This document shows, piece by piece, positions 5,478 through 61,325 of a stretch of DNA of 64,000 nucleotides. A program made the translations under genes and the position numbers. This DNA comes from Octopus vulgaris (Eukaryota). The notes under the pieces are model-generated. The model ran no database searches and was not told where the DNA came from. It saw only the letters and a program-made list of their open reading frames with translations. The stretch spans positions 46,872,001 through 46,936,000 of the forward strand of contig OX597833.1 in assembly GCA_951406725.2 (NCBI GenBank). Reading direction: 5' to 3'. How positions within the stretch are numbered: the first letter of the stretch is position 1; every line of letters begins with the position of its first letter.

Positions 5478-6230
5478 CATTTAAAAAAATTTGTATAAAC
5501 TATGCCAACTTACAATCTTCTCATTGGTTATTTCCATAAAAGGTAGCTTCTAGAACTAGAACTAGAAACACATAAAGGAAACACAGACTGTGAACTGAGA
5601 GTTCCTCTATGTGGTTGTTTTACTTTCTAAAAATAGCAACCAAATTTTCCTTAAATCAAACCCACGCTGTCTCAGAGAAGAACACGTTGGATAATATGGT
5701 CCTGGACTTCCTGTGAATAAGAATAAGACAGAAAGGTCATGGTTGGAATGCCTTTGATCAAGCAGGGCTGACTTGGGGTTAAACAACCAAGCCAGTAAAG
5801 GAACCTCTACAAGGTTGCTATCTCTGCTAGAAATAGCAACCAAATATGCTGACCCATTTAAAAATTTTTGTATAAACTATGCCAACTTTCAATCTTCTCA
5901 TTGGTTATTTCCATAAAAGGTAGCTTCTAGCACTAGAAACAGGAACACATAAAGGAAATACAGATTAGACTGTGAACTGAGGGTTCCTCTATGTGGTTGT
6001 TTTACTTTCTAAAAATAGCAACCAAATTTTCCTTAAATAAAACCCATGCTGTCTTAGAGAAGAACACGTTGGATAATATGGTCCTGGACTTCCTGTGAAT
6101 AAGAATAAGACAGAAAGGTCATGGTTGGAATACCTTTGATCAAGCAGGGCTGACTTGGGGTTAAACAACCAAGCCAGTAAAGGAACCCCTACATGGTTGC
6201 TATCTCTGCTAAAAATAACAACCAAATATG
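5478..6230. repeat. Tandem duplication of about 380 bp (5478-5847 / 5856-6230) including an old dispersed repeat
   Basis: Two nearly identical units readable directly; they also give near-identical ORF translations at 5607-5843 and 5989-6225. Confidence 0.92.
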
Positions 6231-18949: not shown

Positions 18950-20481
18950 ATGAGTGCAAAAAGAAAGAGTTATTCCACGGAGTACAAGAAGAGAATTGTA
19001 GAAAAGTCACATAGGAACTTACAGCTTTCTGTAAGGAGAATGTTGGATATCCGAATGGTTCATAAATGGCAAGTAGAGTACGATGATCTCAGCAGAGAGG
19101 TGGACGAGGGAAGTGCTAAGAACCACAAGTGTGGATCAGGTTGACAATCATTATTTTCAGAGCTGGAAGATACCAGCTCGGGATGGATTGTTGACAGAAC
19201 AAAGGCTTTGATTGTACACAGGGCTGATATTCAAGAATTTGCTCTTGCAAAGGCACCACAGTTGGCGGTGCTTCTACAATGGCGCTTAAGATGGTCCGGT
19301 CATGTGGCCCGGTGTCCAGAGGGTGAGCTGATTCGCAATGTCCTCCTCTCACCTCCATTTCCCAACTGGCGCAAATGCACGGGTGGGCAGCTGAAGACCT
19401 GGGCAACGACGATAAAGGAGGACCTCTCTGAACTCTCAGGTCCGCAAGGGGTCGGTCTGCACAGATGGAACCGCGAATGGCTCGCTATCTCCAGTGACCT
19501 CGCACAGGACCATCGAGTGTGGGCCACCATGGTTCGTGATGCTGTCAGGACCAGAGAAGAGGCCAGCTCAACCTGCCCTGGGTGGATGCCATCACAAGTA
19601 CAAGTACAAGTAAGTACAGTTGGATGTACCCCTAGAGATATTCAAAGCATCACTTCATTGGTTTGATTACTTACTTCGGTGATATGAGCTCTCTCTAAGA
19701 AGATCGACAACACTGGTCAAGCTGGTGGATGCTGAAGTGATTCAGCGTGCACTTTCATTCAAGTCCTTCGTTGATGGCATCGACTTTTCTAAATACAATC
19801 TCTCCAATATAATTGCTAGGGATGAGACTACAGTATTTATGGGCCAAGGATCTAAAATGACAATTAAACAAACAGGCACCTCGTCAATTTACGTTGCCTC
19901 AACAGGTTATGAAAGTGCAAGAGTTAGTTGTATTTTAGCAAAAGTCCCACCGCTTACCATCACAAAGGGTAAAAAAAAAAAGGAGAAAATGGAACAAGTT
20001 TCAGGCATTAATGTCCTTGAAATGGAAAAGGGTTGGTGCACACAAGGTGATATAAGAAAATGGGTTGATTTAACTATGCCACTTGTTTTATGTGGTTCTC
20101 AAAAAGGTATTTTAGTCTGGTATTTGGCCAGTACTCATCACGCAAAAGATATGAAAACCTTCCTTTCTGAAAGAAAAATTGACCACATAATTCCCAAGGG
20201 AATGACTTCATATCTACAAACATTTGATCTTGTAATAAACAAGCCCTTCAAAGATTATTTGCGGATGGAAGTGAATGAATATATTGAACATAGAATTGAG
20301 AGAAATCAACATGGAAACTTTGTCAAACCCAACCTCCAAGAATTGGGTGAAGAATTCATGGAATAAAATTAACTTCAGATGTGTTGCCAATGCACTACAT
20401 GCAGGGTACTTGGGCAAAAAGTGTTCATTTAAGGAAAGTTATATTGCCAAGCATGAGAGATTGGGGTTCATGATTCTATAG
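18950..20481 (+). pseudogene. pogo/CENP-B-like (DDE_1) transposase pseudogene
   Basis: MSAKRKSYSTEYKKRIV N-terminal HTH; FKASLHWF..LSLRRSTT Tc5-HTH motif; NIIARDET; IIPKGMTSYLQTFDLVINKPFKDYLR; stops, frameshifts and a LINE insertion. Confidence 0.88.
19266..19615 (+). mobile_element. RTE-clade LINE 3' fragment inserted in the transposase
   Basis: RLRWSGHVAR...GGQLKTW..TIKEDL..AQDHRVW; (CAAGTA)n tail; 8-bp TSD ACAGTTGG at 19258-19265 and 19616-19623. Confidence 0.92.
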
Positions 20482-26832: not shown

Positions 26833-27246
26833 GCGGCGAGCTGGCAGAACCGTTAGCACACCGGGCGAAATGCGTAGCCGTATTTCGTCTGCCGCTACGT
26901 TCTGAGTTCAAATTCTGCCGAGGTCGACTTTGCTTTTCATCCTTTCGGGGTCGATTAAATAAGTACCAGTTACGCACTGGGGTCGATATAATCGACTTAA
27001 TCCGTTTGTCTGTCCTTGTTTGTCCTCTCTGTGTTTAGCCCCTTGTGGGTAGTAAAGAAATAGGTATTTCGTCTGCCGCTACGTTCTGAGTTCAAATTCC
27101 GCCGAGGTCGACTTTGCCTTTCATCCTTTCGGGGTCGATTAAATAAGTACCAGTTACGCACTGGGGTCGATATGATCGGCTTAATCCCTTTGTTTGTCCT
27201 TGTTTGTCCTCTCTGTGTTTAGCCCTTTGTGGTTAGTAAAGAAATA
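26833..27246 (+). mobile_element. SINE family B tandem dimer
   Basis: Same AAGAAATA|GGTATTTCGTCT junction (near 27062) as the copy at 4347-4756. Confidence 0.9.
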
Positions 27247-27500
27247 GGTAGTAGTTGTGGTGGTGTGTGGTGGTGGTGGTGGTAGTGGTAGTGTATTGTA
27301 TATCAGGTTAAGAAGTTCACATTGCAACCATATGATTTCAGGTTCAGTTCCACAGCATGGCATCTTGGATAAGTGTCTTCTACTATATAGCACTAGACTG
27401 ACCAATGCCTTGTGAGATAATTTAAAAGGTGGGAAAGAAAGCCTAACATAAATATGTGTGTGCAAGTGTGCAATTGCATGTGTTTGTACATATGTGAACC

Positions 27501-33403: not shown

Positions 33404-33603
33404 GTTAATCCAAACAAGAAAGCACAAAAAAACACAACAACGCGAGGACGTGGAACAAATATAGTATTATTGGACACTCAGGAAAGAAGGAGGGTTTAAC
33501 GTTTCAAGCAGAGCTCTTCGTCGGAAACATAGGAGAAGGAAAGATCCAGAGAAGGGAAGACAGAGGAAAAAAAATCGCCAACGGTACACATGCAGTCACA
33601 TTT
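33404..33603 (-). mobile_element. Penelope-like short repeat family a
   Basis: Second copy at 48813-49030; abuts TA tract; next to SINE A head half 33605-33774. Confidence 0.75.
33494..33528 (-). ncRNA. Minimal type-I hammerhead ribozyme, U4C variant
   Basis: GUUU-CCGACGA-A-GAGC ucu GCUU-GAAA-CGUU-AAAC. Confidence 0.65.
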
Positions 33604-33975
33604 TATATACAACGGGCTTCTTACAGTTTCTGATTACCAAATCCACTCACAAGGCTTTGGTTGGCTTGAGGCTATAGTAGAAGACACTTGCCCAAGGTGC
33701 CATGTAGTAGGACTGAACCCGGAACCATGTGGTTGATAAGCAAGCTACTTACCACACAGCCACTCCTATGCCTACAAGTGTTTGAAATAACATAACTACA
33801 CTTGCAAATAAAAGGTCAGGTACTTTTGCATGTGTGATAATGTATTTCTGTATTTACATTCTGCTATGGAACCTGAGCTACTTTTACATGTGCCACCCTG
33901 TATAACCTTAGAAAAAAATATTTTTAAATAGAAAAAGAAAAACAAAAAAAAGGGTAGAGTTGACTTTGCCATTCA

Positions 33976-48765: not shown

Positions 48766-48816
<51 letters not shown>

Positions 48817-49090
48817 ATCCAAACAAGAAAACACAGAAAAAAAGAGAGGAAAAAAACCACAGCAACGCAGGACGTGGAACAATTAAAGTATTATTGACGC
48901 TCAGGAAAGAAGGGAAGGAGGGTTTAACGTTTCGAGCGGAGCTCTTCGTCAGAAACAAGGAGAAGGAAAGATCCCAAGAAGGGAAGACAGAGGAAAAAAT
49001 ATTTGAGCTGGTGGTGCTCAAGAGATCACATATGATCATATATGTATATATGTGTATATATATATGATCATATGATCATATATGTATATA

Positions 49091-49140
<50 letters not shown>

Positions 49141-49295
49141 AATACGACGGGCTTCTTTCAGTTTCCATCTACCAAATCCACTCACAAAGCTTTGGTCGGC
49201 CCGAGGCTATAGTAGAAGACACTTGCCCAAAGTGCCATGCAGTGGGACTGAACCCAGAACCATGAGGTTCGTAAGCAAGCTACTTACTACAACAG
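48563..49295 (-). mobile_element. SINE family A carrying a Penelope-like insert in its (TA)n tract
   Basis: Tail half 48563-48775, insert 48813-49030, head half 49143-49295. Confidence 0.9.
48922..48956 (-). ncRNA. Minimal type-I hammerhead ribozyme with canonical core
   Basis: GUUU-CUGACGA-A-GAGC ucc GCUC-GAAA-CGUU-AAAC: stem I GUUU/AAAC, stem II GAGC/GCUC, palindromic AACGUU stem III, GUU cleavage triplet. Confidence 0.8.
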
Positions 49296-49519
49296 CAGAG
49301 TTCAAAGTTAATTTTTGCCAAGTAGCTTCACTCTGTGTGCTTTAGCTTCATTACTATGCCAACAATTCAAATACTTATTGATCAGATCTCATATATATCA
49401 CCATCGTTTAATGTCCATTTTCTAGCTGACAGGGGTTGGACAGTTTGACTAAGGTCTGGAAAGCCAGCGGCTGCACCAGGCTCTAATATGCATGCATGCA
49501 TGCACCCATCCATCCATCT

Positions 49520-49977: not shown

Positions 49978-50990
49978 ATTATCATCATCATCATCATCGT
50001 TTAACGTCCGTTTTCCGCGCTAGCACAGGTTGGACGGTTAGACCGGGGTCTGGGAAGCCAGGGGCTGCTCCAGGCTCCAGTCTGATCTGGCAGAGTTTCT
50101 ACGGCTGGATGCCCTTCCTAACGCCAACCACTCCGCGAGTGTAGTGGGTGCTTTTTACATGCCACCTGCACAGGTGCTGGGGGGGGGGGGTCCGGCATCG
50201 GCCACGATCGGTTGGAGCTTTTAACGTGCCACCGGCACGGAAGCCAGCCAAGGCGGCGCTGGCAACGTTCGGATGGTGCTTTTTATGTGCCACCAGCACA
50301 GAAGGCAGTCGGAGCGGTGATGGCATCGGCCACATTCGGATGGTGCTTTTTATGTGCCACCGGCACAGAAGCCAGTGGGAGCGGTGCTGGCATCGGCCAC
50401 ATTCGGATGGTGCTTTTTATGTGCCACCAGCACAGAAGCCAGTCGGAGTGGTGCCGGCATCGGCCACATTCGGATGGTGCTTTTTATGTGCCACCAGCAC
50501 AGAAGCCAGTCGGGGCGGTGCCGGCATCGGCAACGTTCGGATAGTGCTTTTTATGTGTCACTGGCACAGAAGCCAGTCGGGACGGTGCAGGCATCGGCCA
50601 CATTCGGATAGTGCTTTTTATGTGCCACCGGCACAGAAACCAGTCGGGGCGGTGCTGGCATCGGCCACATTCGGATAGTGCTTTTTATGTGTCACCGGCA
50701 CAGAAGCCAGTCGGGGCGGTGCTGGCATCGACCACATTCGGATAGTGCTTTTTATGTGCCACCGGCACAGAAGCCAGTCGGGGCGGTGCTGGCATCGGCC
50801 ACATTCGGATAGTGCTTTTTATGTGCCACCAGCACAGAAGCCAGTCGGGGCGGCGCTGGCATCGGCCACATTCGGATAGTACTTTTTATGTGCCACCGGC
50901 ACAGAAGCCAGTCGGGGCGGCGCTGGCATCGGCCACGTTCGGATAGTGCTTTTTATGTGCCACCGGCATCACAACTACTATTTCCATTGT
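49978..50990 (-). mobile_element. SINE family D with its internal 67-bp unit amplified to about 12 tandem copies
   Basis: GTGCTTTTTATGTG starts at 50276, 50343, 50410, 50477, 50544, 50611... (67-bp period). Confidence 0.92.
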
Positions 50991-60288: not shown

Positions 60289-60977
60289 AGCCAAATCTCC
60301 TCAAATCACATCCTCCCTTCTTAAAAAGGCAAAGAACACACTGGATAATGAAATATCCAGATACGCAATGTTTGGAGAAAGAATGTATGTATGTATGTAT
60401 TTATGTATGTATGTATTTATGTATGTATGTGTGTATATATTTGGATAATGTAGTCCCAGAAAAGTGAAAGCACATGGCTAAGAGGTCAGGGTGTAACACT
60501 CATAATCACAAGATTATGGTTTTGATTCCTGGACCAAGCAGTGAATGGTGTTCTTGAGCAAAGCACTTCATTTCATGTTGTTCCTGTTTGCTCATCTGTA
60601 AATGAGTTCCAGCAACCACTAAGAAGTTACCCTTGTGATGGACCAGTGACCTGTTCAGTGTTGAGGATGTTGGAATCTCAGTCAAGTAAGCTTCCTTTTT
60701 GAGTCATACCAACTTATAAGAGCTGGTTTCCTGGTTTCCGAGGCGTATATATCCACCACACCCACTTGAATGGGACACCGGTCCGTTGCAGGATTACTAA
60801 TTTTTTTGCCAGCTGCGTGGATTGGAGTAATGTGAAATGAAGTGTTTTGCTCAAGAACACAACACGTCGCCACACTCAGGAATTGAAACCACGATCTTAT
60901 GATCACGAGTCCAACAGCCTAACCACTAAGCTATGCACCTCCACATTTGTAATCTGTCATTTACACTTGATGGAAAC

Positions 60978-61325
60978 TGGGCATGGATTCACTGAAGCTC
61001 CGGCGTCTGGCGACGGACTTGGTAAACACCCACAAAGTTATCAACCACCTCACCAACAACAACACTGAACACCTTTTTGATCTCCATGTGTCTAACACAC
61101 GTGGACATGCCTACAAAGTCAGAAAACAACACAGCTCCCATGACTTTCGGAAACATTTTTTCACGCTCAGAGTTGCTGAAGCATGGAATAAACTGCCTGC
61201 GTCAGTTGTTGACTGCCATGACACTGCATCCTTTAAGGCCCTCATGCTTTCCGAAATCCGCCGAAACTACACCTGATTATATATACACTTTAGATGAGTT
61301 GTAGTGCACCTGAGCACTGTACACA

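Follow-up and report, generated by a model that had tools for sequence, protein, structure and literature searches.

Hammerhead ribozymes in Penelope-like elements (PLEs), their cleavage as dimers, solo truncated copies and a bias toward (TA)n targets are already published. A C-terminal endonuclease with a CCHH motif and a CX2-5CxxC linker marks the Neptune or Nematis PLEs, and the linker has been tied to microsatellite targeting (PMC8557442, in the portion drawn on here). The minimal hammerheads (min-HHR) of Cervera and De la Pena (2014, PMC4209133) are of type I, with a 4-bp stem I, an unpaired base before a stem II of 7-8 bp, a G10.1-C11.1 pair and a palindromic 15.2-16.2 segment, and most of their copies are single and truncated; the same paper, in its accessible part, reports a U3-A8 variant and not U4C, and states that in vivo evidence is absent. 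U4C is a known natural hammerhead variant whose activity is considerably lower in vitro and which retains viroid infectivity, as described in PMC3088659. The anole Poseidon element PAc is reported to nick AT-rich DNA, to start reverse transcription at a site internal to a tandem RNA, to carry a hammerhead in its pLTR and to use uncut RNA as its main template (PMC11167929). Animal non-LTR retrozymes are depicted, in the available text of PMC7229834 and bioRxiv 10.64898/2026.07.22.740005, as having a type-I hammerhead, kinship with pLTRs and a ~200-400-nt scale; each unit of their non-coding tandems contains a hammerhead (PMC7229834). The O. vulgaris repeat annotation (PMC13282606) lists active Penelope families, and its accessible text makes no mention of ribozymes.

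The octopus element considered here is like the Neptune/Nematis PLEs, as portrayed in PMC8557442, in its single ORF (RT, then a C-terminal GIY-YIG with CCHH and a zinc-finger linker), its pLTR partial tandems, its hammerhead near the 3' end and its (TA)n targets; it is unlike them in having a ~2.5-3 kb CA-rich 3'UTR and a non-canonical core fixed in an active family. Its hammerhead has the min-HHR features listed above, save that stem II is 4 bp and the core carries C4 (families A, B and c2) or U6 (family D). The likeness to PAc extends to each of the properties named for that element; the PAc start site is, however, not homologous to its target, whereas the corresponding RT start site of the octopus element carries 6-8 nt matching (TA)n, and PAc has no read ends at the cut, whereas genomic ends of the octopus families pile up there. 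With retrozymes the element shares hammerhead type, pLTR kinship and scale, but the copy at issue is the solo truncated end of a coding element. Assignment to the animal non-LTR retrozymes was considered and rejected: the unit is ~5.9 kb and coding, and its short copies are solo truncations. The reading that we favor, with a probability of roughly 85%, is that the feature is the 5'-truncated 3' end of an autonomous PLE lodged in (TA)n, and that the hammerhead likely cuts a minority of its RNA templates in vivo.

The window copy and the element behind it

The window is the whole stretch of Octopus vulgaris DNA that was analysed, 64,000 nucleotides in length. Its minus strand from 48956 to 48922 reads GUUU CUGACGA A GAGC ucc GCUC GAAA CG U U AAAC. 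The hammerhead motif, a second copy, the end joined to TA and the nesting in a SINE, all pointed out by the first-pass annotation, are confirmed in the sequence of the window; the designation as a minimal type-I hammerhead and the position of its predicted cut are likewise upheld. The cut is placed by established hammerhead numbering. The features are as follows.

48922..48956, minus strand: minimal type-I hammerhead (from sequence, family variants and pair counts across families)
48956-48953 / 48925-48922, minus strand: hammerhead stem I
48952-48946, minus strand: hammerhead core, with U4 at 48951 (C in family A)
48945, minus strand: hammerhead bulged A
48944-48941 / 48937-48934, minus strand: hammerhead stem II
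48933-48930, 48930-48927 and 48926, minus strand: hammerhead GAAA, palindromic ACGU and H17
Between 48926 and 48925, minus strand: predicted cleavage site GUU/AAAC, from hammerhead numbering
48813..49031, minus strand: 3' end (pLTR) of PLE family A, 5'-truncated, ~219-220 nt
48774..48812, unstranded: (TA)n target tract, (TA)19.5, joined to the fixed 3' end GGATTAAC
49032..49144, unstranded: 5' junction, with short TGATC-like filler copies and the remaining half of the TA/TG tract
49146..49296, minus strand: host SINE, head half
~48770-48561, minus strand: host SINE, tail half
33404..33604, minus strand: second copy, of sister subfamily c2, with its 5' end 107 nt upstream of its own cut
33528-33494, minus strand: hammerhead of the second copy, U4C core, predicted cut 33498/33497
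33612..33767, minus strand: SINE head upstream of the second copy

The 3' end of the window copy (...GGATTAAC, 48813) thus adjoins (TA)19.5, and its 5' end, at -106 from the predicted cut, falls within a family-A truncation hotspot (-101..-120); fillers like those at 49032..49144 are present in 3 of 28 hotspot copies. SINE head and tail flank the hammerhead-bearing repeat, all on the same strand. The second copy is 86% alike to the window copy over 169 nt and has the same terminus and TA run; its core is CCGACGA, and stem II is closed by a G-U pair. No host gene is evident among the ORFs of the 64-kb window. A second, unrelated minimal type-I hammerhead lies at 63951-63908 on the minus strand (ACAC CUGAUGA A GGCUG...CAGCC GAAA UG UU GUGU), and motifs like it in L013 and L082 suggest that it likely belongs to another PLE family. 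The window also holds tandem arrays at 50148-50968 (a 67-nt unit repeated 12.3 times), 26880-27250 (a 184-nt unit, twice) and 5478-6230 (a 382-nt unit, twice), as well as plus-strand segments at 19683-20366 and 60971-61276 that we take to be decayed coding fragments, resembling a DDE transposase and a LINE end.

A genome search with the window repeat yields 1,818 first-look candidates, of which the 40 scored are 96-100% identical. The 30 copies compared have a common 3' end and differing 5' flanks, and several share additional upstream sequence. At least 1,152 copies carry the exact 25-nt terminus against none for a reversed-pattern control, so the recurrence of the terminus is not chance. The shared upstream sequence leads across ~2.5 kb of CA/TACA-rich DNA and reaches the end of a frame for a GIY-YIG endonuclease, ahead of which stands CSRSRCNTC, the CX2-5CxxC linker (CxxxxCxxC) found in Neptune and Nematis; the CCHH motif, whose two cysteines lie between GIY and YIG, is present as well (GLIYCIKC...YIG...EH...RH). 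Long loci are laid out as pLTR, 5'UTR, ORF, CA-rich 3'UTR and pLTR, followed by (TA)n, in a unit of ~5.9 kb. One of them, L065, has an open frame of 816 aa in a unit of 5,890 nt; L067-L071 have open frames of 1,008-1,009 aa (1,009 aa in L067). These open frames carry the RT motif YIDD, the linker and the CCHH GIY-YIG. Two hammerhead-bearing ends stand 5.1-6.2 kb apart, as a partial tandem with pseudo-LTRs, in 9 of 19 long loci examined. Pfam matches to RVT_1 (E=0.0016) and GIY-YIG (E=0.008) are both weaker than the curated cut-offs; 583 homologues are found at E<=1e-20, with PF00078 in most of the 120 listed, and the named homologues among the matches listed are from snails, a sea urchin and a coral. 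The protein of a sister family, B, which has the frames of 1,008-1,009 aa, is 89.7% identical to that of family A. Five copies of family B are 99.6-99.7% identical in DNA, which implies that it moved very recently.

By its motifs, on which the clade assignment is based, the element is an EN+ PLE of the Neptune/Nematis type; Neptune-like is presumably the likelier of the two labels. The Penelope-like terminus proposed in the first-pass annotation, and the linkage to RT and GIY-YIG frames for which it had suggested looking, are thus borne out by the longer copies, which run into an ORF with both. Its description of a short non-autonomous or retrozyme-like element is not: the piece belongs to a PLE with an ORF and a ~5.9 kb unit, of which it is the 3' pLTR end. 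The ~220-nt length is a truncation hotspot of this element and not its size, and the appearance of a 220-bp element is explained by the fact that both copies in the window (-106 and -107) fall in the large upstream hotspot. The 3'UTR of L065 and L067 (2.5-3 kb) consists largely of degenerate CA/TACA repeats, which hide the link to the ORF and may be mis-annotated as simple repeat.

The preference for (TA)n, put forward as a landing pad from the window alone, is a property of the family: (TA)4 lies within 20 nt of the 3' end in 88 of 90 family-A copies, compared with 7.3% of T positions in evenly spaced genomic DNA totalling 400 kb. One of the two exceptions is a tandem junction, and in family B 67 of 68 non-tandem ends adjoin TA. 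The TA tract is likely a pre-existing target, since TA is found on the 5' side as well in 51 of 75 short copies. The further proposal, that SINE microsatellites are preferred, does not hold. SINE cores account for 5 of 90 insertions versus 73 of 689 background TA-tract sides (Fisher p=0.19, 3' side only), and the SINE is an incidental carrier of its TA tract. Target-site duplications are unreadable inside microsatellites. In L012, C1:3973639-3974020 and C2:34148192-34148461, copies point toward one another across a single TA tract or form inverted or closely spaced tandem pairs.

Every 3' end has the form GGATTAAC(TT) + (TA)n. A tandem junction reads GGATTAAC TTTATATA CCGC, so that the element itself carries TTTATATA at this place, and in the family-A sample the sequence after the 3' end of an insertion is TATA (54) or TTTA (32). 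From this junction and these continuations we infer that 6-8 nt of the target pair with the RNA to prime synthesis. Internal-site target-primed reverse transcription, as for the anole element, is what we propose: the endonuclease would nick (TA)n, and the nicked DNA end would pair with the RNA's own UAUAUA and prime reverse transcription inside a read-through RNA. The cDNA would stop at the end of its template, which may be the 5' end made by the ribozyme (copies of <=110 nt) or, alternatively, a further 5' end of the RNA, which might be the pLTR start site (~220-nt copies, including the window copy), and its 5' end would be joined by microhomology after loss of 0-20 nt. Most templates would remain uncut, as expected of a weak U4C hammerhead needing help from a dimer or a protein.

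Core, stems and folding of the hammerhead

The complete core that had been reported is there in the window copy and is not a trait of its family, in which U4C is the rule. The core CCGACGA is found in 26 of the 30 best-matching family-A copies and CTGACGA in only one of the 30, the window's own; in the ordered sample of 90 family-A copies, 44 of 51 readable cores are CCGACGA and none is CTGACGA. Family B has the U4C core in 56 of 58, and c2 has CCGACGA in 16 of 25 readable cores and CTGACGA in 2. The canonical U4 of the window copy is most simply regarded as a C>T change at a CpG, private within family A. The 31-nt hammerhead block is identical between families A and B, amid flanks that are ~55-70% alike, which argues that the block is under selection. 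Stem I of family B has a U-U mismatch.

Homologous families in flanking DNA have the cores CTGAAGA, CTGACGA or CTGTNGA. Across 15 hand-picked, related sequences of these homologous families, 98.5% of 135 cells in stems I and II are paired; the outer pair of stem I changes on both sides (G-C 7, C-G 4, A-U 1), and it is the only one of 9 pairs to do so. Within families, variation is mostly CpG decay and says nothing useful about covariation. The check on core conservation and stem covariation that had been suggested therefore gives a conserved, almost fully paired block, and change on both sides of a pair at that single position. A structure-based scan of all loci finds other hammerhead families; it selects for pairing and was for that reason left out of the covariation evidence. 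The covariance-model check, also suggested, came out negative: Rfam gave no hammerhead match on the repeat, either at the gathering score or at E<=10.

Neither as a monomer nor as a dimer is the hammerhead favored by folding. ViennaRNA folds of the monomer have z scores of -0.98 and -0.42, the predicted fold is not a hammerhead, and the dimer drawn as a hammerhead has -7.3 kcal/mol versus a cofold minimum of -22.5 kcal/mol. This result agrees with reports that such motifs have a low activity, dependent on a dimer or a protein (PMC4209133, PMC11167929 and PMC6765202, in the parts drawn on). The first-pass suggestion that SINE-containing transcripts would cut themselves is not supported: the window copy is solo, with no partner hammerhead nearby, and its predicted fold is a different one.

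A homologous family, D, with the core CUGUNGA (A6U), a free N7 and stem I CUUU/AAAG, constitutes a second independent departure from the canonical core. Its loci are these.

L172:2273-2342, minus strand: family D
L076:694-763, plus strand: family D
L085:910-979, plus strand: family D
L170, L028 and L127: family D

Further motifs resembling type-I hammerheads, in which the palindromic loop of stem III is longer (CCGG, CGCG, CUCGGG), occur in L123, L068, L127 and L133, and one of them is seen 7 times.

Where copies begin

The positions at which truncated copies begin were scored relative to the predicted cut. The family-A sample is the first 90 in genome order among 1,152 exact 3'-anchor matches, and the family-B sample is 76 of the first 79 among 831 matches, 3 full-length copies already studied being left out; both are drawn from contigs C1-C2 and require an exact 3' anchor, which favors young copies. 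Two pile-ups of 5' ends emerge overall, one at 0..+21 and the other at about -100..-128. The 90 family-A starts are distributed as 13 at +22..+74, 13 at 0..+21, 4 at -1..-60, 13 at -61..-100, 28 at -101..-120 and 19 beyond (one row having been moved from -1 to +2, and two, L249 and L250, being doubtful). The rate in 0..+21 is 4-fold above that in the rest of +84..-60 (p=1.5e-4, or p=1.5e-3 when the range reaches to -100); of all 22-nt intervals the densest begins at +6, with 14 ends versus 13 from 0. For family B the interval was preset from A: 10 of 76 ends fall in 0..+20 (p=1e-7), with 2 more at +21, none in +22..+70, which is B's most TA-like stretch, and none in -21..-1. The remaining B starts are at -22..-32 (3), -116..-128 (5), -203..-264 (3) and beyond -400 (53). 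Copies that run through the cut are the majority, about 64 of 90 in A and 64 of 76 in B. The family-D sample comprises just 2 copies, which begin at -20 and -13, on the upstream side of the cut, and lend the pile-up no support.

Genome-wide, starts joined to TA and free of filler, scored by eye among the 100 matches listed, number 45 at the AAAC after the cut versus 8 at the AAAC within the core (p=2e-7). Minus-strand loci number 257 at about -15..+15 versus 61 at -8..-38, inside the ribozyme, the two counts resting on different anchors.

The accumulation of 5' ends at the predicted cut lends indirect support to ribozyme processing, and these ends likely record the in vivo cleavage of some templates. 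Going further, we lean slightly toward the view that the U4C hammerhead, whose core is fixed in PLE families that are actively moving, would cleave ~10-16% of templates in vivo and that the genome keeps a countable record of it. Against cleavage speak the lower in vitro activity of U4C, the U-U mismatch in stem I of family B, the predicted folds, the majority of copies that run through the cut, the spread of ends over 21 nt and the ends that lie inside the ribozyme. In the anole PLE, according to PMC11167929, no RNA-seq read ends were present at the cut, and insertion in vitro did not require cleavage. A different account of the same PLE, possible if somewhat doubtful, has a hammerhead that no longer cuts and is kept as a protein-binding or dimerizing RNA, the pile-up being due to RT drop-off at a bound protein or RNA structure with its edge at the cut site. 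The fixation of U4C in three subfamilies and of A6U in a fourth would fit, as would the identity of the 31-nt block in A and B, which bespeaks selection for something, and the spread of ends over 0..+21 without a single-base peak, most templates being copied through. The only stable helix, stem II, ends at -9 and is the more plausible place for RT to stall, yet -20..-1 is nearly empty (0 of 76 B ends and 1 of 90 A ends). Stem I is only 4 bp long and is mismatched in B, and the edge of the pile-up coincides with the scissile bond in both families. Two further points speak against this account: U4C retained enough activity for viroid infectivity (PMC3088659, as far as drawn on), and the free position in the A6U family is N7, as in active hammerheads.

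It is very improbable that the pile-up is a by-product of TA- or A/T-rich microhomology after the cut, or of alignment bias: AAAC or ATAC at 0..+3 does match a TA run, leaving junctions there ambiguous by 1-3 nt, and the A sample includes the one shifted row and the two doubtful ones, but family B keeps 7 ends in +3..+20 when the ambiguous positions 0..+2 are removed (p=6e-5), its AT-richest stretch (+22..+70) is devoid of ends, and starts at the in-core AAAC, the control, are 5-fold fewer. Also very improbable is a dedicated ~220-nt non-autonomous, retrozyme-like element, excised by the hammerhead and aimed at SINE microsatellites. It would account for two window copies of ~200-220 nt in SINE TA cores, for the start of 28 of 90 A copies in a 20-nt hotspot and for a long shared upstream extension being found in none of the 30 best c2 copies; the 220-nt sequence is nonetheless collinear with the end of ORF-bearing copies, and ends of the c2 type, too, are joined to this 5'UTR and ORF start (of 12 junction loci, 11 go on into the 5'UTR, and L111 into the ORF). 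The ends of the ~220-nt sequence, moreover, do not coincide with the ribozyme cut; the unit is not seen in short head-to-tail arrays, and SINE cores are not enriched.

On the favored reading, that of a coding PLE with a hammerhead that cuts some templates, the pile-up of 5' ends from the predicted cut, seen in family A and again in family B, is a sign, open to testing, that a non-canonical core cleaves in vivo, and the young family B supplies intact ORFs (99.6-99.7% alike) for a direct test. Should the U4C hammerhead indeed cleave ~10-16% of templates, PLE truncation maps could serve in any genome as a gauge of ribozyme activity, and weakening of the core (U4C, A6U) would be a means, favored by selection, of leaving most templates intact. 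In the main texts of the literature searched, we met with no account of 5' ends accumulating at the cut of a PLE hammerhead, nor of a U4C PLE core; Lunse et al., who reportedly describe hammerhead variants of PLEs, may list U4C.

The upstream hotspot may be the pLTR start site. Eight of nine tail-head-tail chimeras, scored by eye, jump templates there, short copies of the element's own start are present at 3 of 28 hotspot junctions, and a review (PMC6765202, in its relevant portion) places the start in the upstream pLTR. Full-length B copies, however, have 5' pLTRs that begin at -381 to beyond -1,400 and not at the hotspot (8 of 8 beyond -400 in the B sample), which weakens the start-site reading. 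The chimeric copies, of c2 type (L112-L114, L116-L120 and L122), consist of a tail, 230-350 nt of 5'UTR and ORF start, and a second tail from the -110 hotspot. Each has different breakpoints, and they likely arose by RT template jumps that generate short two-pLTR units, possible precursors of retrozymes.
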